From: Diadema antillarum
Taxonomy: Eukaryota
Assembly (NCBI RefSeq): GCF_040938485.1
Contig: NW_027270949.1
Location: 3,534,001-3,598,000 of the forward strand
Length of the DNA: 64,000 nucleotides
Direction of reading: 5' to 3'
Position 1 is the first letter of the stretch. Every line of letters begins with the position of its first letter. The translations under genes were made by a program, and so were the position numbers. Positions 837-63,610 of this stretch are shown here, piece by piece. The notes under the pieces are model-generated. The model was not told the origin of the DNA. It saw nothing but the letters and a program-made list of their open reading frames with translations, and did not search any database.

Positions 837-3062
837 TCAGCCGTTCGGCTTTTTGACTATCACGATGGATGGAGAGTTAGAAGGCTCGATTACTCCTAAC
901 TTCAACATGGAATCAACTTCCTTGCTCATTTCCTCTTCCATAGCCTGAGGTACCCTATGAGGCGGAGATCGCACTGGTCGTTCAGTCGTCAACGAGATTC
1001 CACATTGGACTGGATCTACTGTTACCCTGTCAACAAACTCCATCTGTACTACGCTAAGCATACCGGGCATCTCCCTATTCCAACCAGAACCAGCCTCTGC
1101 CACATCTTCCTCGTCAGCCATGACCTCAACAACTTCCTCATCGCCTTCGACCCCCTCAATCTCAAAGCAACTGGCCACTGGTACCTCTTCACCTCGACTA
1201 TAGTACCTCTTCAACAAATTGATGTGGTATGTTTTGGCAACATCATCAACGTCGGCCACACAGTCATAGTCGAACTCGTACTTGAAATTATCAACATGTC
1301 CTCTTTTCCGCCGTAGAGGGCGCAACGACTCATCATCTTTCTGTTCCTTTAGAAATTCACTCGACCGCACATTATCAACAGGATCTGCAACAGTAAAACC
1401 TTTACTAGGCCTCGAATCCTTCACCTTTTGTGCACGAGTTTGAACAGCCATCCCAGTATCATCCACTTCACCCGGGACTGCGACCTCGACGTCCTGTTGT
1501 ACACCATCCTTTGAACTTTCTAGACCCATATCCGGGGTAATGACCTCTACATCCGGGTCAGACACAACACTCTTTGGGACCCAATGTAGATTGGGGTCAC
1601 TCGGTTCACGAGCCCCTTCTACATTCCCGATAACTACCTCACTCAAACAATCAGGCATGCACACGGTTTCAACTTCCCCTTCAAAATATGGCGAGTCAAC
1701 AGCTACCTTAGCCACGGGAAAACGCCTAACCGTACCGTCAATTAACCTCACTGCCTGATGTTGACCTGTTAATTGGTCATTTCTAACCAATCTCTCTTTC
1801 ACCACGCACGTACTACAACCTGTATCACGCAAAACCGACACGGGTGTATTATCTGGCATCAATCTTCCAGACACAACCGGCATACGATTCGCCTTCGCAG
1901 CGACATCATTGTATGTCATTCCACCTTTTTCAACCACTTCATTCTTTACACACTCAAAGTCGTTGGCCACTCTCTCAAGGAGGAAACAACCTGCCGTCGA
2001 ACCAACAACTCCCGGCTCGGGCTCACCCAGCGACACCTCATTCGCCACATTCATGTCTACCTTTGGGGCCGTACCTTCCCCAGCACCCATCAAACCTTGA
2101 GCTGATACAGGCCTAGACAACATGGGACAATCTCTTTTCATGTGATTTGGGTTTCCACACATATAGCAACCCCTGCCCTCAAAAGTCCTATTTCCCATAG
2201 CCTTTCCCGCCTTTGACTGAGCATCAGCCGGTTCCTGATACGTACTACTCTTCTTGACCTGATTTTGTTGGGGCGGTTTGCTATCCGGCTTTGAATCTGA
2301 TCGGTTTCTTTCCGATCTCTGTACACCCGAAAATGCCTGAGGACCGTGAGCTTCTACATAGATTTCAGCACAATCGACTACCTCCTTGAAATCTTTACAT
2401 TTTCGTTCCTTGACAAACCTAACTACTTCTCTGGGACAATCTATCAGAAATTGCTCTTGCAAAATCAAATCTTCTAGATCCTTTCTAGTATCCCCGATCT
2501 CAGCCTCTTCCACCCAATGATCGAAATACCCCTTCATTCGAGTAGCAAACTGTTTTGGGCGCTCGAACTTCATTGGCTTGGCTGATCTGAAACTCCGCCT
2601 ATACCCCTCTTCAGTGAGATGATAATACGACATCAACTCGTGCTTCACTGTAGCATAATTCTGGCGATCATCAGCACTCATCCGATTCACAACATCTAAC
2701 GCTTTGCCTGTTAGATTGGAAATCAAATACAACACCCACATGTCTACCGGGATATTCTGACTTTTCATCAACATTTCGAACTTTGTGACATAAGCATCAA
2801 ACTTATCATGTGCGTCATCAAATCGACCTACTTTCAGCTTTAAGCCAGCTAACTGGGGCCTACCAACATTCGCTGTTTCTTCCTTTACACGCAACTGCGC
2901 TAATTTTAGTTCATGTTCGCGCGCCTTTTCTAGAGCTTCGCGTTCACGATCAGCTTCAATTGCCTGGCATCGCTCTGAAACAAAGCTACTCAATTCACCA
3001 CCACTAAGGCCCATTTCTCTGCCTAACGAAGAGAACTCTCTGATTTGCTCAACACTAGCCAT
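837..3062 (-). CDS. gag: Gag-protease polyprotein fused in frame to integrase and RT remnants (741 aa)
   Basis: SCAN-like LILQEQFL segment; CCHC knuckle CYMCGNPNHMKRDC; aspartic protease LRDTGCS; integrase-start-like EQKDDESL; integrase C-terminal KTYHINLLKRY; RT start PVRSPPHRVP...EVDSMLKLGVIEPSNSP...VKKPNG followed by a stop. Confidence 0.85.
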   Translation of the reverse strand: MASVEQIREFSSLGREMGLSGGELSSFVSERCQAIEADREREALEKAREHELKLAQLRVKEETANVGRPQLAGLKLKVGRFDDAHDKFDAYVTKFEMLMKSQNIPVDMWVLYLISNLTGKALDVVNRMSADDRQNYATVKHELMSYYHLTEEGYRRSFRSAKPMKFERPKQFATRMKGYFDHWVEEAEIGDTRKDLEDLILQEQFLIDCPREVVRFVKERKCKDFKEVVDCAEIYVEAHGPQAFSGVQRSERNRSDSKPDSKPPQQNQVKKSSTYQEPADAQSKAGKAMGNRTFEGRGCYMCGNPNHMKRDCPMLSRPVSAQGLMGAGEGTAPKVDMNVANEVSLGEPEPGVVGSTAGCFLLERVANDFECVKNEVVEKGGMTYNDVAAKANRMPVVSGRLMPDNTPVSVLRDTGCSTCVVKERLVRNDQLTGQHQAVRLIDGTVRRFPVAKVAVDSPYFEGEVETVCMPDCLSEVVIGNVEGAREPSDPNLHWVPKSVVSDPDVEVITPDMGLESSKDGVQQDVEVAVPGEVDDTGMAVQTRAQKVKDSRPSKGFTVADPVDNVRSSEFLKEQKDDESLRPLRRKRGHVDNFKYEFDYDCVADVDDVAKTYHINLLKRYYSRGEEVPVASCFEIEGVEGDEEVVEVMADEEDVAEAGSGWNREMPGMLSVVQMEFVDRVTVDPVQCGISLTTERPVRSPPHRVPQAMEEEMSKEVDSMLKLGVIEPSNSPSIVIVKKPNG

Positions 3063-3450
3063 ACTGACTATGTAACTTCCAGACTAAGCATACGTGTAGT
3101 CGCACAAAACAACAGCTGACTAGCACCTAGCTATCAAAGTCCGACAAAAGTACTACCTTGCAGCCAGCATACTTATCAACAATTTGTATCTCCGAACGAG
3201 CGTACAATTGCAAATGACAAACAGCTGAAATTCACTCAACAAGTATTCCACATACCAAACCGCTAGTATCTTGTCAAAAGCGTACTGGAATGCAGGCAAT
3301 GTGAAATGACACGAGTTCACTCAACAGACATTCCACATACCAAGCATGCCTTGTCAATAAGCATACTAGAGCTGTATCTCCCAATGAGCATACAATTGAT
3401 TTGGGACTGTACAAACCCAATGCAATCTACCAAACATGCCTATTACAGGC

Positions 3451-3994: not shown

Positions 3995-4011
3995 TCTCGG
4001 TGGGACCTCCA
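3995..4011 (-). promoter_or_regulatory. Primer-binding site complementary to the tRNA-Gln 3' end
   Basis: Minus strand TGGAGGTCCCACCGAGA is the complement of the eukaryotic tRNA-Gln 3' end (TCTCGGTGGGACCTCCA). It lies 3 nt after an LTR-like ...GTGACA end. Confidence 0.9.
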
Positions 4012-4014
4012 AAT

Positions 4015-4678
4015 TGTCACGTGAGTGACTTTTTTTTTTTTTCCTCTGCTACTCTGACACCGAAATAATGGAAATTCAAACTGTTCGTACACAGTTATGC
4101 TCGAGTTTAATATTTCAAATCTTTGTAACTTTCTCGTTCATAACAATACATTGAGCATAAAAGATAATATGAAACAAATCACAAATACATAACTTAGGTT
4201 ATCTTGGATGACCTGAACTGGTGATCCCCTCAGCTTGGCTCAGTCGCCATAAATGCCGGATACACTCGTCGTCGACCTCGGCACAGTCGCTTGGCTTGTC
4301 TCTTGGAAGCATCCCTTGACTTGGCCACTCAGCTAGACGCTACCCTATCGGCGGTCCTCTCAGCTCCTCGGCCTTCACTAGTCCCTGCAACCACGCAGAC
4401 TCATGCCTTGACCTGCGATGCCCGAGCTCAAACGACGGCGAGCAGGCAAATGGAGATTGAGCTCCGTTCCAAAGTTCGGATCATAACTGTCCGAGTTCAG
4501 TTTTATCGGCAGCTGGAGCTCGCATCTCACCGACGTGGAAACCCCCCAGAAGAACGACTGCTGCCTAAGCGGAGATCTATGCTGGATGTCTGATTAAAGT
4601 GTTTCTCCTCGATCCTCTACATTACTGAGCTTTTTATTAGCTTCCCTAACCATAGAGATTAACACTAAAGTCCCTTAC
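4015..4678 (-). repeat. Part of the 5' LTR of the Gmr1-like element; probably continues at 13893 to ~14.07-14.2 kb beyond the nested Gypsy
   Basis: Begins at the TG/CA end next to the PBS and runs into the TTAC TSD of the nested element. The distal end (14074 or 14195) is only a candidate because no second LTR copy is visible. Confidence 0.55.
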
Positions 4679-5379
4679 TGTAATGTATATTTAGGATATT
4701 TTGGGATAACTTCCTGTTCATTAACAACTCAACTTAAATTCCCTTGTTTTTGTAAACTCACCTCAGAATATAACACCAAGATTATTTACTATTAATTTCC
4801 TGTCTTTAATTACCCTTGCTTGATGTTTACATCAAGGAGTCATTCAATCACCCTTGTAACAACTCTTCTTTGTCCCTGGTTTAATTACCCAAAGATTATA
4901 TACACACACCTTGTGAACCACCAGACTCTTTGTCTGCCCCTTATCTTATAATACTTCCTCCTCCACAAAAGAATCCCCCTCTTTTGATTGGTCAAACATC
5001 ACCCCTTAGGACAACCCCTTTGGTCACTCTTTTTAGTTATCCCTTTTTGATTGGTTGTCTTACCAAAAATTCTCACCCATCACCCATTGAACATTTCCAA
5101 GTTTGGTGTTCTTTCCAAGGCCCCAAGAGAGATCATGATTTCGACATCAGAGAGTCAACCTCTACTTGATATTGCTCTCTCTCCTGCATCTTGGTACTTC
5201 TATATTTTACTCTGATGTACATACTCGTCATTTAACTTGTCATTGAACTTCATCATGATATTTCTGAACGATTGGGAATAAACACTTTGCATCGATGAAA
5301 TGTACCACAACTGTACCTGAGCTCCTTCATTTCTGCTTCATAATAATATTCCAAATGTAACACCACCCGTTACATTACA
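4679..5379 (+). repeat. 5' LTR (701 bp)
   Basis: Ends TGTAATGTA...TACATTACA (9-bp inverted termini); AATAAA at 5277-5282; matches the 3' LTR except for one A. Confidence 0.97.
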
Positions 5380-5403
5380 TGGTGGAGAACCTTGTATCGA
5401 TCC
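5380..5403 (+). promoter_or_regulatory. Primer-binding site, tRNA-Ala-like
   Basis: TGGTGGAGAA immediately after the LTR matches the complement of the tRNA-Ala(AGC) 3' end. ATCGATCC further on matches the T-arm complement. Confidence 0.7.
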
Positions 5404-6290
5404 TATATCGGAATACCTCATCATTACAACTCGACATCGCTTTTGGAAGGAGACTTTCACCAGACCATGCAGGCCGAGCATTAATAGGACCGTGGCAGCA
5501 TGCGACCTGAAAATTGTTGAAATGTCACTATAACAGATTTTTCGTCGACTTCGAAACTGCAGTGCTGAATCAGGCGATGGACTTCAACAATTAGACAGAC
5601 AACAAACTTTGTGGTGACATGGCCTTTGCAAAAGAATGACGACGGATTGACGACCGACGACTTGAACCTCCACCTATTAACAATGGTGATGACCGTGACC
5701 TGGATGGCGACATCAAGAAGACTTTGATGACGACGCATCGAGGACTACGACGACCACGACCTGAGGGACGTACGAGGAGGACCCATGACTGGTGTTGACG
5801 CGGATGCAGCTCCAGGGAAAATTCTTCAAAAATGGACGCTTTGCTGAATAATGACTGACACATTTTGACAACGATAGGACTACCAGACAGATTCAGGACC
5901 AGACACTTACAGTGTAAACACTAATAGCATTTTCAAGGATAATTGACTCTTAACTTGGAGGACTGATAGTTTGACTGCTTGTGATTATTTTCTTGTTTTT
6001 GGAATACTATACTATGCAATCATTTTGGGAATTGGAGACTTGGTTGAACCCTTTCACATTGGGTAAGTGGAACTTTGATTGTTATTACTGTCCCAGTGTG
6101 AGAGATATTTGAGAGCATGTTGATTTTGATTAGTGCTTACTGAGTTTGCATTATTTTATTTTGACTGGTTACAGTATTTGTATTTAATCCTCATGTGTTT
6201 CCTTTCATACTCATATTTGTTTGACTGTTATTACTGATCTTTGACTTTGATATTTGATTAGATAGGCTTTGTGTTACTCAATATTACACC

Positions 6291-7421
6291 ATGACCACCA
6301 GTAGGACCCTCCGACAGACCGACTTTTTACCGACTAAATTTTCTGGCAGCCGACTAGATTACAATGACTGTACTGCCCATATTTTGACCTTTGAAGACTA
6401 TTTAGACGCCCATGACATTGACTCGGACAAAGCTGGCAACTTGACGACTATACTTAAGACTTTCAAGCGGACATTAGAGGGACAGGCCAGACTCTGGATA
6501 GACAAATTGACTTTCACTACCTATGACGACCTAAAGACGGCTTTCACTAGGCGATTTAGCCCCGCCAAATCGACTTTTGCTAGGGTTACTGACTTTAACA
6601 CCATGACTATGACTGATGGAGAGAGTGTCGAAACTTTTCTCCAACGACTCAGACAGACTGCCTCCTACATAGACTATGGGGAGAAGCAAATAAAGGACCG
6701 TTTACTTGCTGCACTGACCCCCGACTGTCGTGCCGCCATTCTTATGGCATCGCCGACATCAACGACCACCCCTGACGAGATAGCCGCGAAAGCGCAGCTT
6801 TTCATAGATCTTAGGACTGACACTACCCCGACAAAAGAAGTGACATTCGCAACCCAAGACGATGTCGACCTCCTAAGTGAGGAAATTTCCTCCCTTAGAT
6901 TTAAAACCGAACAGAAAGACTCCCGAGGACGAAGACGAAATCGACATTCCCAACACAATGACTCTGACCGCAGTACCAGCCGCAGCGCTAGTAGGACTCG
7001 ACATAGGGATGACCACAGCAGACATGAACGTAGTCTAAGTAGGGACCGACATCATTCTGACTACAGACGTAGTTTAAGTAGAGACAGACGACATGATAGT
7101 AGAGACAGACATCCTGGACGGCGCTCTCCTTCTCGTGATCGTTATCGGTCACAAAGCCGAGGACGCGACCAACGGTCTCGACCTCGATTCGCTGGCAAGT
7201 GTGACTATTGTCACATTCCTGGCCATTTTTGGAGGGATTGTCGGCATAGGTTGAGAGACATTGAACGCGAGAGACGACCCCAATATTACGGACCACCCCC
7301 ACCCCACAGACAACAATACGATGACTATAACCGACATCATCATCGACATCAACAACAACAACAACATCATCTACAATACACAGGACAGTACTTCGACACA
7401 CATCCCCAGGGTTTTCATTAA
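6291..7421 (+). CDS. gag: Ty3/Gypsy Gag (376 aa)
   Basis: Retrotransposon capsid-like motifs (PTKFSG, LEGQARLW, ESVETFLQRL), Arg/Ser/Asp-rich segment and CCHC knuckle CDYCHIPGHFWRDC. Confidence 0.93.
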   Translation: MTTSRTLRQTDFLPTKFSGSRLDYNDCTAHILTFEDYLDAHDIDSDKAGNLTTILKTFKRTLEGQARLWIDKLTFTTYDDLKTAFTRRFSPAKSTFARVTDFNTMTMTDGESVETFLQRLRQTASYIDYGEKQIKDRLLAALTPDCRAAILMASPTSTTTPDEIAAKAQLFIDLRTDTTPTKEVTFATQDDVDLLSEEISSLRFKTEQKDSRGRRRNRHSQHNDSDRSTSRSASRTRHRDDHSRHERSLSRDRHHSDYRRSLSRDRRHDSRDRHPGRRSPSRDRYRSQSRGRDQRSRPRFAGKCDYCHIPGHFWRDCRHRLRDIERERRPQYYGPPPPHRQQYDDYNRHHHRHQQQQQHHLQYTGQYFDTHPQGFH

Positions 7422-7457
7422 GGGAGGAAAATAGAAGCGCTCTCTATTCCACCTCCC
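7409..7457 (+). promoter_or_regulatory. -1 programmed ribosomal frameshift signal
   Basis: G_GGT_TTT heptamer in gag phase (7409-7415), 6-nt spacer, then hairpin GGGAGG/CCTCCC (7422-27 with 7452-57) and AATAGA/TCTATT (7430-35 with 7443-48). Pol is in the -1 frame. Confidence 0.8.
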
Positions 7458-10400
7458 AAAATGAACACCTCAGGCCTAGGGACGGACAAAAACTCAAATC
7501 GACATACTTAGGGACAGAGGACGTAGACCTGCAACTGACTAGTAATAACTTTGTAAAGGGACGAATTGACAGTGGTAAGCACATTTTCATTCTTTTTGAC
7601 AGTGGTGCTACCAAGACATTGATTTCTGACCGCTATGTTAAATCAACTCCACATCTTTCCAACCTAAAGAGGCAGAGCGTGACTCCTACTCGATTTAAAC
7701 TAGGGAACGGGCAGTTCCTTGAAGCGCGAACCGCGATTAAATTCAGAGTCACAATTCAAGGTTACAAATTCGAAATTTCTGCTTTAGTCGTTGAAAACCT
7801 TGTTGGTGTTGATTTGATATTAGGCAATAACACACTTTCGGACGTAGACGGGACTTTGACTTTCAGGGACCATAGGTTCAAAATCAAACGGCGTAGGATA
7901 CCATTTTCCCCTACATCAAAGGTGAAAATCGAACCATTTGAGTCCAGACTCATGACACTACAGGGACATACACCTGCCCACTTACGTAACTCGGACGTCA
8001 TACTGACTTCAAATGACTACCTCAGTAGGCACTGCCCATCAACAATGGTGGTAAAACTAACAAAAGGTGCGACTCAAATCATTGTGACTAATACTACTGA
8101 CAGACCTCTACATTTCTCTAAGGGTAGGGCGATTGCCTTTCTCGACACTACTAACCCCGTACGTGTGACTGAGCCCCTCCCAGTAGATAACATAACTATG
8201 ACCTTGACTGACAACACACATGCACTTTACTCCACTCAGCTTGACACCGCAGACAGTAACCTTGACAACCAGACTAGACAAGCAAACCTTGACAAATACC
8301 CCCACCTTGATCCCAATGACCCCATTGCTAACATGACTGAAGACCAAATCATTAGAGCCCATATTGACTTAAAGGATAGTGTGCTTTCTCCCTCTGAAAA
8401 GAATGAGTTGATACAGATCCTTAAAGACAACAGACCCGCATTCTCCCTCTATGGTGAGCTATCTAGTTGCCCAAACTTTGAAGTAGACATACACTTGACC
8501 AATGACGAACCATTTTTCATTCGACCATACTTTGCTACTGAACCTGACAAACGACAAATCGAAAAGGAACTGACCAAACTCGTGAAACTTGGTATACTTG
8601 AGGTTGGACATCAGGCATACACCTCGCCTGTGTTACTCATTGCCAAGAAAGACAAGACTGAAAAACGAGTAGTGACCGACTTTCGTTACCTGAACTCTAG
8701 AATTAGACGTATCAACCATCCCTTTCCCCTACTGACTGAAACCCTTAAACGCATCGGACATGCTAAGACTAAAGTAATGAGTGTCATCGACCTCAAATCT
8801 GCCTTTCACTGCATTCCTCTCTCTAAACAAGCACAACAGTATACCGGCATTGCCTCCTATCATGGAGGAAAGCACTATTACTATAAACGACTTGCCCAAG
8901 GACTTAACATTTCACCCGGACTATTCCAAGCAAAAATCGACAACATTCTAGGCACCATTCCCAACTCCCGCAATTTCTGCATTGCTCACCATGATGACAT
9001 AATCTTATTTAGCCCTGACAAGACATCCCACAAACTCCACCTGACCAAAGTATTACAGGCCCTCTCTGACAATGGACTTAAAATCTCTCCTAAGAAATGT
9101 AAACTCTTCACCAATGACGTAGACTACATGGGACATAGGATAACTATTAACTCGGACGGTGAGGCTTGTTTTCGACCACTGAACAATAGATGCGCCTCTA
9201 TACACAACATTACTCGACCCAAGACACCCAGACAAGTTAGACGGTTAATTGGTGCTGTCAATTATGTTGCAGGATTCTTTCCCAACATACAGTCTATTTT
9301 GAAGCCACTACACCAGCTTACCCGAAAGAAAAAGAAATTCAAATGGACTGACGAACATGAACGCGCCTTTAACAAAATCAAAGACCTCATGACCAAACCC
9401 CCTATACTACACATGCCTACGAATACCGGACGATTCACACTTTACAGTGACACATCACGGACTGCGACTGGATCTTACTTGACTCAAATCATCAACGGAC
9501 ATGAAAGAGTTATAGGCTATTACTCTAAAGTTCTCCCTGACGCTTGCCAGAGGTATAGTGTAACAGAACTAGAATTGTTTGGCCTTTTGATAAACATAAC
9601 TGCTTTCAAACACTTGTTGCGTGGTTGTGAATTCAATGCATTTGTTGATCACAGCTCAATTGTTCAGATATTAAAGTCCAAAGATGAACCATCCACCACC
9701 CGCCTTCAGAAACTAATCTTGAAATTATCAGAGTACTCCTTTAAGATTGCATACAAGAAGGGTACCGAACTTGTCCTAGCAGATTTTCTGTCTCGCATAC
9801 CAAGCGACAAACATGCCGAAATAGATCATGTAGTGCCCATTTCATTTAGTTTAGTTGATAATCATGACCTAGATCATCTTAATCCCATACAACCTGCCGA
9901 GCGTCCAGTGACACGCGCCTTTGCTAAAAAGATGGGTATTTCTGTTCCCAATCTTCATCCTGACAGACCCAAAACTAACAACCACAACAATATTGATACT
10001 GACACCGCCCCACCCCCTGAACCAATCATCACACCTGCACCCAATAACAATACCCCACATTCGCATGAACCGGCCAATCAGAGATCAGCATTAGACACAC
10101 CCCCTGACCTGCCCCCAACTACGACACACTTTGCCCCACATGACCATAACAGACCCCACACACAGAAACCAACACCTAACGCTCCGAAGCAAACAGAACC
10201 TAGACTGGTGGACAAACAAAATGAGTCACCGTGTACACAAACATACAGGGATGTGCCCCCAGACTTGTTTACAGCCCCTAAGCCACTGATCTCAAATGTT
10301 GAGCAGATTGTTGCTCCACATATACCCAAACAACATGACATAGACAAAGTACTAGACTTGATAAAGAGAAAAATCATCCGTGACTACAACCTGCCCATTG

Positions 10401-12208
10401 ACATACGAAGACTTAAGACAGAACAAGAGACATCTCCATTCTTCAAACCGATCTATGACTTTCTAGCCCACGACATATTACCTAGTGACAAAAAGGCAGC
10501 GAAAACAATTCAGCTGAAAGCTGAGCAATACATCCTATGTGATGGTGTATTATTCCGCCTTTTCTTTGACAAGACTGACGACTTTAAACTACAACTTGCT
10601 GTACCAGAATCACTGACTGATGTTATCATTTCACAATACCATGACAACCTACTTAGCAACCACCAAGGAACAATGCGCACTTACTTGACAATACGACGTA
10701 ATTACTATATGCCACAGATGTTTGACAGGGTACAAAACTATGTCAAAGCTTGCCTGAGATGCCAACAGTTCCGTGGCAAACCAGACAAGTTACGCCCATT
10801 CCACACTCGTGTACCCGACTCCTATCGACCCTTTGACAGAATAAGCCTTGACTTTAAGACCATGCCTACCTCGGCAACTGGTTTTAGACATTTGATGGTC
10901 ATTTGTGACGAGATAACCCGCTTTGTTATTTGTGCCCCACTTCGCACTCTCGATGCCGAAACAATTTGTGAGGCATTGATACAAAAGGTTATCTGCATTT
11001 TCGGACCCCCTTCCTGCCTTGTGACTGACGCAGCAGCCGCTCTCACAGGCAAACTACTGACTACACTGTGTACCGCCCTGAACATTGATAGGAAAGTGAT
11101 TAGTGTTGCAAACCACGGCAGCTTACAAGTTGAACGCCACATTCGAACACTCTCTGACTTCCTCAAGGTGAACCTGAACCAATTTGGAACAGATTGGGTT
11201 CGGTTTATTCCCACTACTTGCTATGCCTACAACTCATTCTCTTCCCCTCATCTAGGTGACCACTGCCCTTACCAACTTGTATTTGGACGAGACCCCCCAC
11301 CCATGACTAACTTGACCTTCAACCCAATGTCTGGTCTGACCCAGACTTATGACGAATATGTTTCCCATCTCAAACGGAAATTTGACCAGATCTCTCACAC
11401 GATGCTTTCGCTCCAAAGGCGAACTCAAGACAAGCAGAATGTCGCCATTACAAATAAACTACGACAAACTCCTATTTATTCAGTAGGCCAGCTAGTCTAT
11501 TTGTACAAGCCAACTTCTTCCTCCCTCACTGCAAACTCGAGAAAGATTGCAGCTGCTTGGGTCGGACCTTTAGTTGTGCATGAAGTGCTCGATAGAACCC
11601 ACTTCATTCTCTCCACTCTCAAAGGTGAAATTCTGCGAGATGTCTTTAACTACAACAGGTTGAAACCCTGTTTCATGAAAGCATCGGATGAGAGGAAACC
11701 CATCACCCACCTCCAGCGACTGAAAGAGGCACTTGGAAAGACAGTGACCCCTGGAGACGGTGAGACCTCTGACAAACCATCAGTAAATTTTATTGATGAG
11801 CATGACCACACCCCTCCTGAATGCACTGCTGATCACATCATGTGCTTTCAGACGACAGACCCAATCCAAACATCTGACTATGTGACATCCATCACCCCTA
11901 ACAACGGAATAGCCGCCCCAACCCCCCTACGACAAACTGACCTTGAACGACAATTTGACCTTCTAACAACTGCCCCTTCTGACAATGACATAACCCTACA
12001 CCGAGGACGATTTAAGAACGGGCAATTGCAAGTACTGACTTCATTCATTAGGACTCCGACTGACGGTAATAACCCCAAAGAGGTTAGATTTTGGTGGAAC
12101 ATAGGACTGTATACAGACACAAGTAACTTGATAAGACAAATTCTGATTGAAAGAATCATTCCTGTCACGGGAACACCAAAGAAATATATGAAACGATTAT
12201 ACACATAA
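7409..12208 (+). CDS. pol: Pol (PR-RT-RNase H-IN plus C-terminal extension), entered by -1 frameshift from gag
   Basis: The frame is open upstream of the track start at 7619 and includes protease FILFDSGAT. RT VVTDFRYLN, VIDLKSAF, AHHDD, YMGH; RNase H YSDTS, TELEL, VDH, LADFLSR; integrase HHCC and D(SLDF)-D(VTDA)-E(QVER). Confidence 0.95.
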   Translation, partial: GFSLREENRSALYSTSQNEHLRPRDGQKLKSTYLGTEDVDLQLTSNNFVKGRIDSGKHIFILFDSGATKTLISDRYVKSTPHLSNLKRQSVTPTRFKLGNGQFLEARTAIKFRVTIQGYKFEISALVVENLVGVDLILGNNTLSDVDGTLTFRDHRFKIKRRRIPFSPTSKVKIEPFESRLMTLQGHTPAHLRNSDVILTSNDYLSRHCPSTMVVKLTKGATQIIVTNTTDRPLHFSKGRAIAFLDTTNPVRVTEPLPVDNITMTLTDNTHALYSTQLDTADSNLDNQTRQANLDKYPHLDPNDPIANMTEDQIIRAHIDLKDSVLSPSEKNELIQILKDNRPAFSLYGELSSCPNFEVDIHLTNDEPFFIRPYFATEPDKRQIEKELTKLVKLGILEVGHQAYTSPVLLIAKKDKTEKRVVTDFRYLNSRIRRINHPFPLLTETLKRIGHAKTKVMSVIDLKSAFHCIPLSKQAQQYTGIASYHGGKHYYYKRLAQGLNISPGLFQAKIDNILGTIPNSRNFCIAHHDDIILFSPDKTSHKLHLTKVLQALSDNGLKISPKKCKLFTNDVDYMGHRITINSDGEACFRPLNNRCASIHNITRPKTPRQVRRLIGAVNYVAGFFPNIQSILKPLHQLTRKKKKFKWTDEHERAFNKIKDLMTKPPILHMPTNTGRFTLYSDTSRTATGSYLTQIINGHERVIGYYSKVLPDACQRYSVTELELFGLLINITAFKHLLRGCEFNAFVDHSSIVQILKSKDEPSTTRLQKLILKLSEYSFKIAYKKGTELVLADFLSRIPSDKHAEIDHVVPISFSLVDNHDLDHLNPIQPAERPVTRAFAKKMGISVPNLHPDRPKTNNHNNIDTDTAPPPEPIITPAPNNNTPHSHEPANQRSALDTPPDLPPTTTHFAPHDHNRPHTQKPTPNAPKQTEPRLVDKQNESPCTQTYRDVPPDLFTAPKPLISNVEQIVAPHIPKQHDIDKVLDLIKRKIIRDYNLPIDIRRLKTEQETSPFFKPIYDFLAHDILPSDKKAAKTIQLKAEQYILCDGVLFRLFFDKTDDFKLQLAVPESLTDVIISQYHDNLLSNHQGTMRTYLTIRRNYYMPQMFDRVQNYVKACLRCQQFRGKPDKLRPFHTRVPDSYRPFDRISLDFKTMPTSATGFRHLMVICDEITRFVICAPLRTLDAETICEALIQKVICIFGPPSCLVTDAAAALTGKLLTTLCTALNIDRKVISVANHGSLQVERHIRTLSDFLKVNLNQFGTDWVRFIPTTCYAYNSFSSPHLGDHCPYQLVFGRDPPPMTNLTFNPMSGLTQTYDEYVSHLKRKFDQISHTMLSLQRRTQDKQNVAITNKLRQTPIYSVGQLVYLYKPTSSSLTANSRKIAAAWVGPLVVHEVLDRTHFILSTLKGEILRDVFNYNRLKPCFMKASDERKPITHLQRLKEALGKTVTPGDGETSDKPSVNFIDEHDHTPPECTADHIMCFQTTDPIQTSDYVTSITPNNGIAAPTPLRQTDLERQFDLLTTAPSDNDITLHRGRFKNGQLQVLTSFIRTPTDGNNPKEVRFWWNIGLYTDTSNLIRQILIERIIPVTGTPKKYMKRLYT

Positions 12209-13179
12209 TTTTCTTGATAAGCTTTATAAGTCTAAAGCTGTATATGATATATTTCTTTGTCATTTTATGATTTGTTGTATTTGTTGCTGAAGTAATATAC
12301 GTAACTTTCACATTATTAATCTCATTGCCAAAATAATGAGAATATAAGCTTTGGAATCCCTTTTCAAGGCTGTGTAATTGCATGTTATATTATTGTATCA
12401 AATTAATTGTCTTGACACTGATTGGAGAAATTTGAGTTTAAACTCGTTTTTAATAAACAGACTTGAAAGTGTCTGTTCTTTCGCTTACTTCTATTGTTAT
12501 CAATTTGGAGAAATTTACTTTCTTATCGAGTGAGGTTTGAGAGTCATATTCTTCTGTGTACATCCTTCACTGAAGTGATAATTCCTAATAGGCCGCACAG
12601 ATAGCTCTCATACCTCGAGCGCACTCGTTACCTCTCCGCTGATACTCAATTAGATGCTTGGAAATTAGCGTCTGCGAGAATGACTCAAATTCTTGATTAT
12701 GATTTGATATACTTGTAGTATTAATTTTCGCTGATATTTCCTGATTTGCTCTTTTAATCATGAATTCCTATTCATGCATATTTTGTGCTGATTTAATTTT
12801 CCTTGTTTGATAATTGAGCATATTGAAGTTATAAATTATAGTCATTGCTCAGTTGTTATTTTTATGGTTGAAGAAATTGACCATTTTAGGATAATTATGT
12901 TGAAGAATATTGCATTAGTTTTGGTTACTTTATTCACTGTATCTCATTGTAAATAGATCACCATTATGTTATTTAAATGTGTGAGAGTGAATGTGTGAAA
13001 GTGATAGTGGGACAGTAATGATTTGAGTTCCACTACCTACCATTCATTTGTTTTTATTTATAATATCTATCATTTTGTTTTTCAACATTCAGATTCTGGA
13101 AATTCCAGAAACCTCTCTATGTTCTGATTTGTTCGTAATATTTTGACCCCCCCCCCCCCCCCGAGCCTTGTTTCCTAAC

Positions 13180-13188
13180 AAAAGGGGA
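13180..13188 (+). promoter_or_regulatory. Polypurine tract
   Basis: AAAAGGGGA directly before the TG of the 3' LTR. Confidence 0.9.
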
Positions 13189-13888
13189 TGTAATGTATAT
13201 TTAGGATATTTTGGGATAACTTCCTGTTCATTAACAACTCAACTTAAATTCCCTTGTTTTTGTAAACTCACCTCAGAATATAACACCAAGATTATTTACT
13301 ATTAATTTCCTGTCTTTAATTACCCTTGCTTGATGTTTACATCAAGGAGTCATTCAATCACCCTTGTAACAACTCTTCTTTGTCCCTGGTTTAATTACCC
13401 AAAGATTATATACACACACCTTGTGAACCACCAGACTCTTTGTCTGCCCCTTATCTTATAATACTTCCTCCTCCACAAAAGAATCCCCCTCTTTTGATTG
13501 GTCAAACATCACCCCTTAGGACAACCCCTTTGGTCACTCTTTTTAGTTATCCCTTTTTGATTGGTTGTCTTACCAAAATTCTCACCCATCACCCATTGAA
13601 CATTTCCAAGTTTGGTGTTCTTTCCAAGGCCCCAAGAGAGATCATGATTTCGACATCAGAGAGTCAACCTCTACTTGATATTGCTCTCTCTCCTGCATCT
13701 TGGTACTTCTATATTTTACTCTGATGTACATACTCGTCATTTAACTTGTCATTGAACTTCATCATGATATTTCTGAACGATTGGGAATAAACACTTTGCA
13801 TCGATGAAATGTACCACAACTGTACCTGAGCTCCTTCATTTCTGCTTCATAATAATATTCCAAATGTAACACCACCCGTTACATTACA
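13189..13888 (+). repeat. 3' LTR (700 bp)
   Basis: Direct repeat of 4679-5379, with A4 instead of A5 in TACCAAAA(A)TT. Confidence 0.97.
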
Positions 13889-14479
13889 TTACACTCCGAT
13901 ACACTTACCTTTTCATGCCTTTCCTACACTAAAGAAATCATCCAATCATCATGCTTAAATATAGCCCTATTGAAACTCTACACAATATGTCTAGCCATCG
14001 TCTAGACTGCTGTTACATAACATCTTTACTCATGAACTTATGAACAATAAACTACAACCAACACCCTAGTGACACTGACATAGCTGAGTCTCGACTGAGC
14101 TAGAGAACATTCCTAGCCACCACCTGGATGGGAGCTATTACATAACACCTCTATTCACTCAATTTCTATAGTCTGAGTTAATACATAATATTACAAACCG
14201 GGGATGCTGTTGCCATGCTATTTCTTTAACTTTTGCTTTGTCTCATTTCATGGGACTGCCCTGTCTGACTTTGACTGATCTAGACATGCTGTTGCTATGC
14301 CAGTTTATTCTTTAACTTTTACTTTGTCTCATTTAATATAAATTTCCAGACAATCAATCTCTTGCAGTTTGACCTAGTGGCTTTCTAGGACAACTTTAAA
14401 GCTCTAAATCTTTTGCAAACTCAAACAAATTCGATTTCACTTCACTGGCAAAATCAAAGATAAATTTCTCTCCTGACAG

Positions 14480-14690
14480 ACGTGAAATGGAGGTCCAGTG
14501 TGGGGTAGAGTCACATCTCAAAAGGACACGCTTTATTCATTCATCCTAAAGAGCATAGTGATAAACAGGCGAAGTGGTCCCACCTCACATCCAACTCACA
14601 CTGCACCCCATGGAAGACTCAGCTAGTGTAGCCGCTGAATGTGTAGACTATATCCAGTTCTCTTCTCAGATGGAAATGAAACAAACGAAC
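14480..14690 (+). mobile_element. SINE-like dispersed repeat fragment
   Basis: Shares AAAGAGCA..GTGA, CCCCATGG.AGAC, GCTGAAT and CTC.TCAGATGGAAA.TGAAA blocks, in order, with 35748-35905, the tail of a repeat that has a Pol III B-box. Confidence 0.55.
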
Positions 14691-14983: not shown

Positions 14984-16412
14984 GTAAGATTTTTCTCTCT
15001 TTTTTTATACAACTTTGCATTTCCTTGCTTGGAAGAACATAGTGTCCCAAAGTGTGAAACGCAATGTTAAATAAACACATTGTGAACACAGTGTGAAATC
15101 TCTTCACGCTGTTAAATTTGAGTGTTTTAACAATGTGATCACATTGTGAAACATCACATTTCAATGTGAAGCAGCACATTGTCATGTAAACACTTTGTTT
15201 AAAAAAAAACACAAAATAAGGGTGTAAAATCATCTTTACACCGTTAAAATCGAGCGTTTTCACATAGCCAATATGTGAACATATTTTGAGCACATTGTGA
15301 GTCACCCGTATTCTTTCCAGCAGTCGGTTTCAGCGAGTTTGAATGATCACAGTGTTGTATAATAAACCTTTAATTGATTTCATCTAGATTCCGTTTTGTT
15401 TGTTATCGGTTCTGCTTTGATTAGAGACAGCACATTTTGTCACCATTGATTAGTTAGCGCTATAAGTTCTCATCATGGTCATACGCAGGCACTGGCAGGG
15501 GGTGGGGGTGGCCAGGGGGAAGGGGGAGGGAGGCAGGAGCTGGAGGAAGATGGAAAAGAGGTAAAGAGATAACGGATCCTACTATTAAGACATACATGAT
15601 GCATTCAGCCAAGTGGGAAGAGGATATTCCCCTCTCACCCGCTCCCCATTTCGGTCGACTTTCGGAGACTAATAGTGATACAGTGAGGCACTCACTACAC
15701 AAGAGATAACATAAACCGGGATTTAGCCATACGCATTTTCTCTCCGTCATCTTTATTTTCGTAGCTCTAATATCACGAAAAGGTTTCCAACATTTAGCAC
15801 CCGATATTTGCAAGAATGCAAATGCTCCCTATTATGGGAGGATCTATACCCCGTCGACACCCTCCCAAAGTTCGGTCCACTTCCATAGTGCCATATTAGT
15901 ACACAAGTACAAACTGTAAGACGCACACGTAAAACAAGAGGTAAAGGATACCATGATTTAGTACCCCCCCCCCCCCGCCATATACTAATTCATCTGATTT
16001 GGGGGATTAACAACTTTCAAAATATTGTTGAATTTCAATTCTAAAAATGCGAAAGTTCCCTTGGGTGTGACGGGGGGGGGGGGGATATACCCGGTACCAC
16101 ACCCTCACCCGCTCGGTCGCTGCACTCCCATAACTATTGTTGGCGTGTTCATCCCGAATATCTGAATATCGAACGTATTCTTGCCCCCTTCACTCAGCAA
16201 AGTATCCTGTGTACATTTATGGTTTCAATTGTTCTTCTGGCTATATGATAGTTTTAACTTATGCTTACAGCAATATTTGGTTACACGTCAGACACATGAC
16301 TTGGTCGGATGTTCCTGTTACCTGCAGCCTCAGTTGGGTTTTTTAATGTTCATACATGGCTGTCGAGATATTAATGATTTGTGCTTGACATTACATTACG
16401 ATTTATTTTCAG

Positions 16413-17499
16413 TTACGCCTTCGACCCACGCATATGTTGCGTAGCTCCAGAGAAAGCTGTGTGCACTCTCCGTCTACCAGCCCACCCGCTCTTCACCTGC
16501 AGACTGACTTTTCTGCAGGATCTTCCCACTAAAATCTTCATCTGGATTCTTGGAATCAGCGCACTTATCGGAAACTCCTACGTAATAATCCAGCGACTGT
16601 TGGCCAAGGTTTCAAGAGATACGGCTAAAGTCCAGTCTATTCTAATTTTGAATCTTGCCATCTCTGACTTCCTGATGGGAATCTATCTCCTGATCCTAGC
16701 AATTATGGACATCGTCATTTCGGATTCCTACTTCTGGGAGGGGAGGGCCGAAGAGTGGCGAACCAGCAGCATTTGTCAGGCGGCGGGCTTCATCTCTGTA
16801 CTCAGCAGCGAGACGTCGGTTTTCTTGATTACCATCATCAGCCTCGATCGAGTAATTGCCGTTCTCTTTCCATTCAGTGAACGTCGCCTTAGTGTCAAAT
16901 CAGCTCACGTGGTAGTAGGAGCGACCTGGGGATTAGCCCTCCTCCTTAGCATCTTTGCTGCTGTACTGAATTATCTCAACCCCGACGCTTATGGACTGAG
17001 CGACGTGTGTGTAGGCCTGCCATTGATTCGCAAGAATTCTGGACTCATATCTGTGGTTGATGAAAACACACTCACAGAGATTGGTTTTGTGCTCCATAAG
17101 ACTGTTGCGGCGGCATCGGAGTCAACTTGGCTGTTTTCCATCGTCCTGTTCCTTGGAGTCAACTTCTTTTGTTTCTCCGTCGTACTCATCGCCTACATCA
17201 TCATCTTTATCTGGGTGCGGGTTACCAGGAACAAGGCGGGACGCAAAGACAGTGAAGGAGCTGAAATCAAGATGGCTGCTAAAATGTCACTCTTGGTCGG
17301 TACGGACTTCTTTTGCTGGATGCCCATCATCATTCTAGGAATACTAGTCCAGAGTAACATCGTCACACTCAGCTCGGACGTCTACGCCTGGCTAGTGGTC
17401 TTTGTCCTACCTATTAACTCATCAATTAACCCTTACCTGTACACAATCGTGGACGCCACGACCCGTAAACAGAAATTGAAAGGAAAAACCAGGCTGTAA
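16413..17499 (+). CDS. Gene 1: hinge plus 7TM terminal exon of a GRL101/LGR-type class A GPCR
   Basis: Acceptor ttattttcAG at 16411-12, phase 2. DPRICC hinge, LNLAISDFLMG, SLDRV, DFFCWMP and NSSINPYLY motifs. Stop at 17497-17499. Confidence 0.93.
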
Positions 17500-58272: not shown

Positions 58273-61200
58273 GGGATGGCATCCAGCGCCATACCTGTTC
58301 CCTCCAATGAGTGCTGGGGTCATCTGGGTCATGTTCGGCTGTCCTAACGTTAGAGTTCTTGTGAATCATGTTTCCGGTTGGGGTGAAGATCCCTCAAACT
58401 GCTGGAGAACAACAACTGAAGGGCACGGCGGGCTGATTCCTGGTGACTGTCTAGTGCTAAATGGGAATTAATGGAGTGGGGCCCCTTAGGTGGTTGGCTG
58501 GCATACTTGTCACCTTCCGGCAGCTCCTGCATCCTGTCTCGCCTCAAGCCGTCTCGACTTCGTCTTGCCTCCAGCCGTCTCGACTTCGTCTTGCCACTGG
58601 ACCCGGCGTCTCAGGACGAGAGAGTGAGGCTGATCCTGCGCAAGTCTCCTTCACTTTAATCAAAGTTCAGCGAAAGTCATGACATCGCCAGCTTGGCAAC
58701 ATTGAAGTCCTGTGGCGATAGGGGAGCGGTGAAGCAGCAGGTGCGGATATACTGGGAGCTGTAGTCGTAAACCTACACACAGGCGGCTTAGGACATGTGG
58801 TCGCTCTTCACTGGACCGAGGCAGCAGTGGAGTTCGGCAACCTTCTGAGCGACCGAGCAGCCCTCGTGAGGATTGCTCTGCTCGCCTCCTCAGCAAGAGG
58901 ACGGGGCTAGAAAAGGTGCCCTAAACATAGCCTGCCTCACCTTACCCTGGCCAGCATACCGCGGCTGGCGGGGATCCCTCTTAGCGGTCGAAACACAAGA
59001 AAAAAAGAAAACAAAAGCGCTCACCCAAGCATCATGGAATGTGAGAACTCTACTTGATGACACAAAAGCAAGCAGGCCAGAGAGACGCACTGCGCTGGTC
59101 GCCAGAGAACTGGCTCGCTACAATGTTGACATAGCTGCTCTTAGCGAAACACGGTTAGCAGAAAAAGGTCAGTTAACTGAAATTGGTGGTGGCAACACAT
59201 TCTTCTGGAGTGAACGTAGCAGTGGAGAGAGAAGAGAGGCTGGTGTTGGATTTGCTGTCAAATCCATCCACGTGCAAAAACTAGCAAGCATCCCTGCGGG
59301 ACTCAATGACCGTTTGATGTCAATGCATCTCCTACTTGAAAAGAAGACAAGTGCAACCATCATAAGTGCCTACGCTCCGACCATGAAAAACCCTGATGAG
59401 GTCAAGGACAAATTTTATGAGGATCTTTATTCTCTCATCGCTTCTACAAAGTCTGAGAAGCTCATCATCCTTGGTGATTTCAATGCTCGAGTAGGGGCCT
59501 GACCATCATGCCTGGCACAATGTACTAGGAAAACATGGCATTGGAAATTGTAACAGCAACGGGCACCTCCTCCTCAGATTTTGCTCCTCTCACGACCTAG
59601 TAATCACCAACACCATGTTTCGACTACCGACTCGGAACAAGACTTCATGGATGCACCCTCGCTCGAAGCATTGGCATCTTATTGACTATTTATCGTCAGG
59701 GTAAGGGACAGGCAGGACGTGAGAGTGACTAAGGCTATGTGTGGTGCTGACTGCTGGACGGATCACCGCCTGATCATCTCAAAGATGAACCTCCTAATCC
59801 AGCCCAAGAGAAGGCCACAGGGCCAGAAAGTAAAAAAGAAACTGAATATCAACAATCCCAAAGACCCCAAGAAGCTGCAAGACTTCCAAGAACACATGCA
59901 TAACCACCTAGCAGACCTTCAGCTAAACCAATCTAGCATCGAGGATCAGTGGGCAACCTTTAGGGATGCTGCTCACTCTGTCGCCCTTGAATGCCTTGGC
60001 CCAGCCACTAGGTACCATCAAGACTGGTTTGATGAAAACGACACAGAAATTCAGGAGCTCTTAGATGCAAAACAGAACCTTCTACGTGTACATCAGAATG
60101 ATCCCTCCAACGCCCGCTGCAAGGTCCAAGTAAAACTACGCCACATGAAAGACTCCTGGCTTAGTGCCAAGGCCGATGATATCCAAAGATTTGCCGACAG
60201 AAACGACATGAAGATTTTCTGTGATACCCTGAAAGCAGTCTATGGACCAAAACCGTCCGGATCATCCCCACTTCTCAGTGCTGATGGTTCTACGCTGCTG
60301 ACAGAGAAGAAGCTCATCCTAAAAAGATGGGCTGAACACTTCAACAGCGTATCAAATCGACCTGCCCAGATCAACAACGAAGCCATCGATCGCCTTTCCC
60401 AGGTGCCCATATATCACAAGCTTGATGTGCCCCCTTCAGAGAAGGAAAACGACATAGCCATCACACAGCTGTCTAGTGAGAAAGCCCCAGGCTCTGATTC
60501 CATCCCTGGAGAAGCGTACAAAAAGGGTGGCCCAATCGCCGTCATTAAGCTCACCGAGATGTACCAATCCATGTGGAGCAAAGAACAATTACCACAAGAG
60601 TTCAGAGATGCTACAGTTGTCCACATCTACAAACGGAAAGGAAATCGTCAGGTTTGTGACAACCATCGAGACATCTACCTCCTGTCTATAGCAGGCAAGA
60701 TCCTGGCCCGTGTCCTCCTCAATCGCTTACTGGAACATCTGGAGCAGGGTCATCTCCCTGAAAGTCAATGCGGCTTTCGTGCAGGTCGAGGGACCATTGA
60801 CATGATATCGTGATCTATACACAACCTTTGTTGATCTGACTAAGGCCTTCGACACGGTTAGTCGTGAGGGACTCTGAAAAAATTATGGGAAAGTTTGGCT
60901 GCCCATAAAAGTTCATTACAATTGTCCGCCAGTTTCACGATGGGATGACTGCCAAAGTTCTAAATAATGGTGAACCCTCCAAGGTCTTTCCAGTGACAAA
61001 TAGAGTCAAGCAGGGATGTGTCCTGGCCCCGACACTATTCAGTATGACGTTCTCGGCAATGCTCTCAGACGCCTTCAAAGACTGCGAACCTGGCGTCAAC
61101 ATTATGTACAAGTCGGATGGAAAGCTCTTTAATCTTAGGCGCTTGAAGGCCATCACGAAGGTGAAGGAGACCGTCATCAAAGACTTCCTGTTTGCCGACG

Positions 61201-62170
61201 ACTGTGCACTCAATGCCAATGGTGAGCACGAGATGCAGATGGAGGTATGGACATATTTTCCTCTACCTGTGACAACTTCGGCCTTACCATCAGCACCAAG
61301 AAGACTGAGGTGATGTTCCAACCAGCCTTAGGGAACCAGTACCACAAACCACAAATCCAGGTGAATAGACAGACTCTCCAGGCAGCAAAGACCTTCACCT
61401 ATCTGGGCAGCACCCTCTCCAATTTTGTCACAATTGATGCTGAGCTCAACAACAGGATCTCTAAAGCCAGCAGTGCTTTCGGGAGACTCAGAAAAAAAAA
61501 ATGTTTGGGAGAGGAGAGGGAGCAGCCTTTCAACAAAGCTGAAAGTCTACAGCGCAGTTGTCCTCACCACGCTTCTCTATGGCTGCGAAACTTGGACTTT
61601 GCACCGGAGACATGAGAGGCGAATCAACCACTTCCATATGCGATGCCTCCGCAACCTCCTTCGCATCCGCTGGGAAGACAAAATTCCGGACACAGAGGTA
61701 CTGAAGCGGGCAGGCATCCCTAGCATTATTACCAAAATCCGCAAGGCCCAGGTGAGATGGGCAGGCCACGTCTCCCGCATGTCTGACAACCGCATCCCGA
61801 AAAATTTCTTCTATGGAGAACTCGCTGATGGAGAGCGCAAGGTAGGAGGAGAGAAAAAGCGCTTCAAAGACAAGCTGAAGCTCTACCTAAAAGACTTCTC
61901 CATCGACACCGAGTCCCGGGAGACACTTGCCGCAGATCGCCCTTCCTGGCGCCACGCTATTGCTGTAGGGGCTCGTAGAGCAGAGGAGCAGCGTGTCAAG
62001 CAGGCAGAGCACAAACGCCAGATGCGAAAAGCTAGAGCAGCCAATCCCAACAGTTTACCCCCTAACCATTTCGCCTTATCTGTGGGAGAGGCTTTCTTGC
62101 CCAGATTGGCCTCATCAGCCACGTCCGGACCCTCGAGCTAATTGATGTCATTGGTCATCCTCGAGAACAT
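58273..62170 (+). mobile_element. Near-full-length decayed RTE-clade (BovB-like) non-LTR retrotransposon in the last intron of gene 2
   Basis: APE domain [37 protein letters not shown]; RT ESQCGFR, DLTKAFD, KQGCVLAPTLF, LFADDCAL; C-terminal RWAGHV.RM. Broken by stops and frameshifts (~59500, 59700, 60810, 61250, 61500). Ends are approximate. Confidence 0.9.
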
Positions 62171-62472
62171 ACAATATAGTCAATAGTAGAATTGTAGAAT
62201 TGACTTCATCTAAACGATATACCCTTACACCTACCTGCACATACGTATAACAGAGAAATAGAGAAATTAAATCTAACCAAAATAAAAACACAAAGGGTCT
62301 ATGCAGATTAAAACATTTCTAACTATAATAATGAGATTATAGTTTGTTTTTTCATAGTATTGATACATCATCAACATAATCTAGATTGATCCTTGTTAAC
62401 GTGTGATTGGCTGAGATGATAGTTTTTATACTTTATAACGTTAGTGATTGCATATTCTATTTTTCTTTTCAG

Positions 62473-63610
62473 AAACGTCTACGACCCACGCATATGTTGC
62501 ATATCTCCAGGAGACTCTGTGTGTATGTTAGGTGAACCACCTCACCCCCTCTTCACCTGTCGAATGACTTTCCTACAGAATCTTCCTATCAAGATTTTCA
62601 TCTGGATTCTTGGGATCAGTGCACTTATCGGAAACTCCTACGTAATTGTTCAGAGATTGCAAACTAAGTTTTCACATAACGCGGCCAAAGTCCAGTCCGT
62701 CCTAATATTGAATCTTGCCATCTCTGACTTCCTAATGGGAATCTACCTCCTGATCCTAGCCATTATGGACATCGTCATTTCGGATTCCTACTTCTGGGAG
62801 GGGCGGGCCGAAGAGTGGCGAACCAGCAGCATTTGCCAGGCGGCGGGTTTCATCTCTGTACTCAGCAGCGAGACGTCTGTTTTCTTGATTACCATCATCA
62901 GCCTCGATCGAGTCATTTCCGTTCTCTTTCCGTTTAGCGAACATCGTCTTAGTGTCAAGTCGGCTCGTGTGGTAGTAGGAGTGACCTGGGGACTAGCACT
63001 TCTTCTCAGTACCTGTGCCGTCGTACTAAATTATCTCAACCCTGACGCTTACAGCCTGAGTGACGTCTGTGTGGGCCTGCCATTGATTCGCAAGAATTCT
63101 AACCTCAATAGCGTCGTTGACGAACGCACATTCAATCAGATTGGTATTGTACAGTATGCCACCGTTGCAGCAGCATCGGAGTCAACATGGCAGTTTTCCA
63201 TTGTCTTGTTCCTTGGAGTCAACTTCTTTTGTTTCTCCGTCGTACTCATCGCCTACATCATTATCTTTATCTGGGTGCGGGTGACCAGGAATAATGCGGG
63301 ACGCAAAGACAGTGAAGGAACTGAAATCAAGATGGCTGCTAAGATGTCACTTTTGGTCGGTACGGACTTCTTTTGCTGGATGCCCATCATCATTCTAGGA
63401 ATTCTTGTCCAGAGTAGTGTAATCACACTCAGCGCGGACGTCTACGCCTGGCTAGTGGTCTTTGTCCTACCTATTAACTCATCAATTAATCCGTACCTGT
63501 ACACCATTGTGGACACCGTAACCCGTAAACAGAAATCAACACGGCCAAACACGGGGAATATGCGCAATACTCAATCTAATTCTGCTAGTTCGAAAACTTA
63601 CGCTGCTTAA
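62473..63610 (+). CDS. Gene 2: hinge plus 7TM terminal exon of a GRL101/LGR-type GPCR
   Basis: Acceptor ttttcttttcAG at 62471-72, phase 2. DPRICC, LNLAISDFLMG, SLDRV, DFFCWMP and NSSINPYLY motifs. Stop at 63608-63610. Confidence 0.94.

Follow-up and report, generated by a model that had tools for sequence, protein, structure and literature searches.

The window analyzed here is a 64,000-nucleotide stretch of Diadema antillarum DNA (contig NW_027270949.1), with positions counted from its first letter. From 4679 to 13888, it carries an env-less Ty3/Gypsy gag-pol LTR retrotransposon. The features of the element, with the basis of each call in brackets, are as follows.

4675..4678, + strand: left copy of the TTAC target-site duplication, TSD (flanking letters)
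4679..5379, + strand: 5' LTR, 701 bp, TG...CA (LTR comparison)
5380..5388, + strand: PBS-like TGGTGGAGA, which we take to match the 3' end of tRNA-Ala (letters directly after the 5' LTR)
6291..7421, + strand: gag ORF with Retrotrans_gag and a C-x2-C-x4-H-x4-C knuckle (ORF, Pfam)
7331..12208, + strand: pol ORF, 1625 codons stop to stop, PR-RT-RNase H-integrase (ORF, Pfam)
7409..7456, + strand: predicted -1 frameshift signal, heptamer and stem-loop (frames, heptamer, fold)
7559..7840, + strand: aspartyl protease, DSG (Pfam, residue patterns)
8789..8806, + strand: motif A of the reverse transcriptase (RT), from the catalytic Asp (8789-8791) to the steric-gate Phe (8804-8806) (translation, alignment)
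8888..8905, + strand: RLAQGL, an LPQG-type motif (translation, alignment, PMC8640165)
8987..8998, + strand: RT motif C, HHDD (translation, letters, alignment to Ty3 RT)
9344..9796, + strand: RNase H with its acidic residues in YSDTS, TELEL, FVDHS, and LADFLSR (Pfam, residue patterns)
10601..11140, + strand: integrase zinc finger (HHCC) and core (D, D, E) (Pfam, residue patterns)
13180..13188, + strand: short polypurine tract (PPT) AAAAGGGGA (letters)
13189..13888, + strand: 3' LTR, 700 bp (LTR comparison)
13889..13892, + strand: right copy of the TTAC TSD (flanking letters)

The LTRs agree at 700 of 700 aligned bases, with one 1-base homopolymer indel, and the 4-bp TTAC duplication stands on both sides. 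The insertion is recent and the element is intact. An earlier sequence-only reading had described essentially identical LTRs and no disabled ORF, a description that stands with the stop-free pol of 1625 codons; its statement that motif A (VIDLKSAF), RNase H, and the integrase DDE are intact holds as well, with D-E-D-D present in RNase H and both HHCC and D-D-E in integrase. Pfam domains follow one another in pol in the order PR, RVT_1, RNase H, integrase H2C2, and rve. The stop-to-stop frame of gag begins at 6258, and pol overlaps gag in the -1 frame. At their junction lies a G GGT TTT heptamer (7409-7415) with a stem-loop downstream (fold about -16 kcal/mol), so that, judging from frames and predicted fold, the junction at 7409-7456 likely uses -1 ribosomal frameshifting. 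A VHDD element in metagenome locus L001 has G GAT TTT (about 2736-2745) just upstream of its gag stop.

Assignment to Ty3/Gypsy follows from the LTR pair with TG...CA, the TSD, the PBS, and the PPT, from the order gag then PR-RT-RNase H-integrase, and from an RT that is nearest to the Ty3 type by sequence and by fold. Between pol and the 3' LTR (12209-13188), the + strand holds no ORF of at least 100 aa that could be env; an errantivirus, that is, an env-carrying Ty3/Gypsy element, is rejected on the lack of an env-sized ORF after pol. The CsRn1 clade, defined by a CHCC gag knuckle and a tRNA-Trp PBS (PMC2582038), is rejected as well; the knuckle here is CCHC, and the 4-bp TSD is the sole common trait. 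Two parts of pol are without Pfam match: a partly proline-rich segment of ~250 residues between RNase H and integrase (9851-10600) and an integrase tail of ~240 residues (11480-12205). In the tail, there is no match at E 0.01 to any Pfam family, chromodomain included, although a divergent domain could escape Pfam. Parts of these segments are conserved across the clade described below. Rfam gave 0 matches within 4000-14500.

Other mobile elements and genes lie elsewhere in the window. About 1.6 kb from the 5' LTR is a second, broken retroelement (837-3083, - strand) with a SCAN-domain gag and a zinc knuckle; the SCAN-gag presumably makes it Gmr1-like. Fragments of a non-LTR element, with endonuclease and RT start in separate frames, lie at 58870-62138. 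Two rhodopsin-family GPCR ORFs (16378-17499 and 62423-63607) are about 86% identical in DNA over 1076 bases and, by this likeness, are a local gene duplication.

The letters of motif C

At 8987-8998, CAC CAT GAT GAC encodes HHDD in the context FCIAHHDDIILFS, in frame in the stop-free pol ORF. The four residues align with YLDD of Ty3 RT, and they depart from the canonical (Y/F)xDD motif C, the first residue being His. The motif that the sequence-only reading had placed here is thus borne out by letters, frame, and alignment.

Region 8300-9900 was compared with contigs from 4 public runs (X1, X3, X10, and X19), and the motif was readable in X1 and X3. The main contig of X1 covers 8300-9900 with 5 differences and that of X3 covers 8300-9141 with 2, in each case with 0 in 8987-8998. 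The two runs bear different organism codes, and the 12 motif bases are the same in the main contigs of both. The window may derive from X1, and less probably from X3. Because neither contig differs in the motif, HHDD is not a sequencing error.

The five base differences between the window copy and the main X1 contig fall at 9005, 9211, 9280, and 9330-9331. They change the residue in 2 codons, both away from the catalytic motifs, and may reflect assembly errors or changes unique to this copy. Among the 40 differences listed for related contigs (37 codons), 34 codons are silent and 3 carry a replacement; the 40 are a best-supported subset, and the ratio is not a dN/dS estimate. When 7450-12200 is compared with runs X1-X12 and 8300-9900 with X1, X3, and X10, near-identical copies (about 99% or more over RT) occur in runs with three different organism codes, which could reflect congeners, mislabelled runs, or horizontal transfer.

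HHDD among related reverse transcriptases

Homologue searches and a look-up of 90% clusters gave 372 proteins, 324 of which (the query included) have a BLAST alignment across the motif. At 57% identity or above, 58 relatives besides the query span the motif: 52 read HHDD, 4 MHDD, 1 HYDD, and 1 HFDD. Since near-identical members of the 90% clusters are included, the 58 are not 58 independent lineages. At 48-57% identity (n = 23), VHDD (7) and IHDD (6) are commonest. Below 48% (n = 242), the commonest form is IMDD (83, plus 31 gap-aligned as -MDD). HHDD occurs in 0 of the 265 proteins below 57%. HHDD is lineage-specific, as the sequence-only reading had held. Other family copies with YxDD were what that reading had named as fatal to its case; 0 of the 58 relatives at 57% or above read YxDD or FxDD.

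Among the 52 HHDD proteins, 29 are polyproteins of at least 1300 aa, and all 29 match the first-Asp and Glu patterns of RNase H and the Asp and Glu patterns of integrase. Holothuria leucospilota has three full-length HHDD polyproteins on contigs that all differ in length and the MHDD form as well; other named carriers of HHDD are Apostichopus japonicus and Patella caerulea, and the IHDD form is found in Lineus longissimus. A metagenome scan yielded 2 loci from 120 pattern matches, L001 with VHDD and L002 with IHDD and neither with HHDD; a viral scan yielded 1 marginal locus from 6 pattern matches, which is not an HHDD element. Three RTs of the same animal retrotransposon clade (P0354, P0361, and P0364) are labelled bacterial in public records (Proteobacteria, Salmonella sp., and Omnitrophica), probably through host contamination of those assemblies.

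For phylogeny, 218 proteins were gathered, of which 206 cover motifs A to C; 12 were set aside on account of coverage or because DD was missing. The quick tree, computed with the two His columns removed, comprises the 120 closest proteins and 22 of the other 74 taken at random. It sets HHDD in a surrounding clade of 122 rows (SH-aLRT 99) that is mostly IMDD and in which xxDD takes at least 19 different forms; Tyr and Phe are absent from position 1 in 113 of these rows. Inside it, the rows that have His at x group without exception into a single 33-row xHDD clade (SH-aLRT 98), whose members are I/VHDD rows and the 23 rows of the HHDD group (91). The careful tree, which is unrooted, holds 62 hand-picked rows and again leaves out the two His columns. 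It recovers an xHDD clade of 32 rows (94/99) and an HHDD core of 22 rows (99/92), while support for all 23 HHDD rows together reaches only 70/83. On these trees, HHDD is one clade within the xHDD clade, with IHDD/VHDD sisters, inside a large and mostly IMDD clade.

The nesting implies that Tyr was lost long before HHDD appeared. The sequence-only reading had pictured a jump from a near-universal (Y/F)xDD, and this part of it is not supported, in view of the 113 rows above and of telomerases, which work with hydrophobic residues in these places (hhDD, such as LVDD; PMC1851649). An IMDD-type ancestor, already without Tyr, would have gained His at x once, giving rise to the IHDD/VHDD/HHDD clade; His at the first position would then have been fixed in one sub-lineage, with a separate origin in an HMDD group. 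The order of the two gains is likely, yet unproven because of the 70/83 support and the unrooted trees. Forcing the HHDD group and six HMDD/HCDD/HSDD rows into one clade is rejected (p-AU 0.0009), which leaves two or more origins of His at position 1, or its loss in between.

The 23 rows of the HHDD clade have pairwise identities of 54-95% (mean 67%), and each His is present in 22 of them; of the 33 xHDD rows, 32 have His at x. On the tree, 1 change accounts for each His column, where the average column takes 3.75. The pair is conserved, though not uniquely so, since among 274 columns 61 need no change and 46 need one. Neither His is indispensable, because MHDD, HYDD, and HFDD occur inside the clade.

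The wider clade is itself a large group of intact marine Gypsy RTs, represented by P0024, P0035, P0043, and about 55 other rows, that reads IMDD alongside many other non-YxDD forms. Among these forms are HMDD, IADD, IIDD, LLDD, QMDD, HCDD, HSDD, and ITDD. A literature search found no paper on IMDD and the other non-YxDD forms of marine Gypsy RTs.

Active site, mechanism, and competing readings

The rest of the active site is that of an ordinary RT. Equivalent residues were assigned by motif, and we assume HIV-1 numbering for them. All 23 HHDD-clade rows keep the Asp triad (one Asp in motif A, two in motif C), the Phe of the steric gate, the Lys and Arg of the fingers, and YMG as primer grip. 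Contrasts with the 72 'canonical' rows are slightly blurred, since a few of those rows are members of the large clade that had not been sampled. RLAQGL, which the sequence-only reading had taken as aberrant, corresponds to the LPQG motif of M-MuLV RT (PMC8640165). In the 23 rows this motif has Pro in 43% and Ala in 48%; given the M-MuLV likeness and a split near half, about half of the clade reading LPQG, RLAQGL does not count as another anomaly. An AlphaFold2 model of RT-RNase H (53-sequence alignment) has a mean pLDDT of 88 and sets the motif at a turn between two strands. Ty3 RT is its best match in fold, as 4OL8 by Foldseek (E 2.8e-35, TM 0.78, a likeness of fold and not of activity) and by VIA-align (Z 36.1, rmsd 3.1, 449 residues aligned), and it is the best sequence hit among solved structures (E 2e-27). 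The structure model suggested at the outset thus yields a predicted RT-RNase H fold that matches Ty3 RT.

In HIV-1 RT, the Asp triad binds the metals, and the residues equivalent to Tyr and x touch the primer and not the metals: Tyr183 intercalates between the last two primer nucleotides, and Met184 lies against the primer terminus (PMC1851649). In HIV-1 RT and hTERT, fidelity is determined in part by positions 1 and 2 of motif C (PMC1851649). In M-MuLV RT, Y222A and Y222S are almost inactive while Phe is tolerated, and V223H is active, more accurate, and used in SuperScript III, according to a review's account of commercial work (PMC8640165). Other V223 changes lower fidelity or leave it unchanged, and several alter it two-fold or less (PMC8640165). 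A prime-editing study repeats the fidelity claim and places V223H with the variants whose editing was reduced or almost absent (PMC10308706); V223H is also part of an engineered RT variant (PMC13298206). A literature search found no data on His at the position of M-MuLV Tyr222.

We consider it probable that HHDD is the conserved motif C of a marine-invertebrate Ty3/Gypsy clade, with a working Asp-metal site and a His pair in primer-contact roles. In this model, the three intact Asp would bind two metal ions as usual, and the two His would take over the primer contacts of Tyr and x. The first His, flat and hydrogen-bonding, would take the place of Tyr in stacking between the final two nucleotides of the primer; the second would be packed beneath the primer end and make the dNTP pocket tighter. 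Judged by sequence and model, the HHDD RT is very probably active with ordinary Asp-metal chemistry. By analogy with V223H, whose precedent is a distant RT that keeps Tyr, fidelity would be equal to or above that of IMDD relatives, with an enzyme that is perhaps slower. A measurably higher fidelity is a tentative expectation from this analogy, falling somewhat short of an even chance.

The main rival holds that HHDD is an active but unremarkable clade signature, entrenched by neighbouring changes, with fidelity and kinetics as in IMDD relatives. It comes close to an even chance, and its premise of an active enzyme is common to our preferred explanation. The surrounding clade tolerates at least 19 xxDD forms, close relatives read MHDD, HYDD, or HFDD, and several M-MuLV V223 changes shift fidelity two-fold or less (PMC8640165), all of which suit a neutral motif. 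It is harder to square with the retention of each His in all but one of the 23 rows, at identities as low as 54%, with His at x in 32 of 33 xHDD rows, and with a position-1 His counted as arising at least twice, or being lost in between.

An error-prone HHDD RT that speeds diversification of the element is improbable. Both positions govern fidelity in HIV-1 RT and hTERT (PMC1851649), and some V223 changes in M-MuLV RT do lower it (PMC8640165); however, the sole His precedent, V223H, is described as more accurate (PMC8640165), and steric gate and primer grip are normal here. The branches of the HHDD clade are not long, a weak argument in a search centred on the query.

Less probable still is a change in metal use, which the sequence-only reading had raised, with the His residues serving, for example, as Mn or Zn ligands. 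His-His beside Asp-Asp does resemble a metal-binding run, and in the 23 HHDD-clade rows the residue three places upstream of the first His is always Cys. Nothing points to His as a ligand, however: the three Asp ligands never vary in the clade, the counterparts of the two His touch the primer and not the metals (PMC1851649), and close relatives carry hydrophobic residues (I, V, M, Y, or F) at either position. Finally, the chance is negligible that the motif is an error of sequencing or a lesion that disabled this copy and left its mobilisation to a YxDD helper in trans: identical LTRs date the insertion and do not prove that the element's own RT made the copy, but the same 12 bases in X1 and X3 contigs from differently labelled organisms and a clade-wide HHDD, with none of the 58 close relatives reading YxDD or FxDD, refute an error or private lesion and agree with the earlier view that a fresh lesion is unlikely.

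Significance and known systems

HHDD is real, conserved, and apparently undescribed as a motif; it is one step in a wide non-YxDD range and not an isolated oddity. The two residues just ahead of the Asp pair rank with the best-studied determinants of RT fidelity and of the response to nucleotide analogues, and nearly all data on them were obtained with point mutants of YxDD enzymes. The HHDD clade is natural, occurs in two phyla, includes intact young copies, and has His at both sites as well as natural intermediates. It makes testable whether mobile elements are selected for more accurate copying, and it offers new RT scaffolds for biotechnology. Many intact marine Gypsy elements, a large group, would be written off as dead by motif filters that require (Y/F)xDD. 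A bolder reading, which we hold as rather doubtful, is that this clade of echinoderm and mollusc elements, old and successful, comprises natural high-fidelity RTs, joining a His at x like the one engineered for accuracy into SuperScript III to a second His in place of Tyr. If so, the graded series IMDD, I/VHDD, HHDD, MHDD, HYDD, and HMDD would show selection tuning the mutation rate of a retroelement. If HHDD enzymes behave as ordinary RTs, the motif is a useful clade marker and little more.

The rvt-type RTs perhaps also have His at x, for which a literature search gave no confirmation. Within the full-text literature, a scope outside which lie Repbase and most subscription papers, where such elements may sit uncommented, we found no description of an HHDD RT. 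Sixteen MolGy clades have been defined, with motifs undescribed in the available text (PMC6238403) and no RT motif string in the searchable part of its supplements; the IMDD-type elements and the HHDD lineage are possibly among these clades. One study reports, for echinoderms, intact gag-pol elements and no env-carrying ones; the term YxDD is absent from its available text, and its supplements (7 files) gave no RT motif match (PMC13524379).

Among known systems, Saccharomyces Ty3 RT (PDB 4OL8, 7Q5B) and the Metaviridae share the LTR-gag-pol-LTR layout, the PR-RT-RH-IN order, and the Asp triad. At about 28% identity, Ty3 differs in reading YLDD where this element reads HHDD and MPFG where it reads LAQG; the ~250-residue segment between RNase H and integrase and the long integrase tail, both without Pfam match, also set the element apart from Ty3. 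M-MuLV RT V223H (YHDD) has His at x, an LPQG-type motif, and a Phe steric gate in common with it. That variant is engineered and retroviral, is about 23% identical, and keeps Tyr at position 1, whereas the His at x here is natural, fixed in its clade, and paired with a second His. Telomerase RT is likewise without Tyr or Phe at position 1 of motif C and is an active RT, reading LVDD in human TERT (PMC1851649), yet it belongs to an unrelated RT class and has hydrophobic residues where the element has His. Closest are the IMDD-type marine Gypsy elements, which belong to the same 122-row RT clade (SH-aLRT 99) and have the same pol layout. From these the HHDD element is distinguished by His at position 1 and at x, by Ser where they have Asp or Glu three residues after the motif A Asp, and by Gln where they have Met in the LPQG motif.
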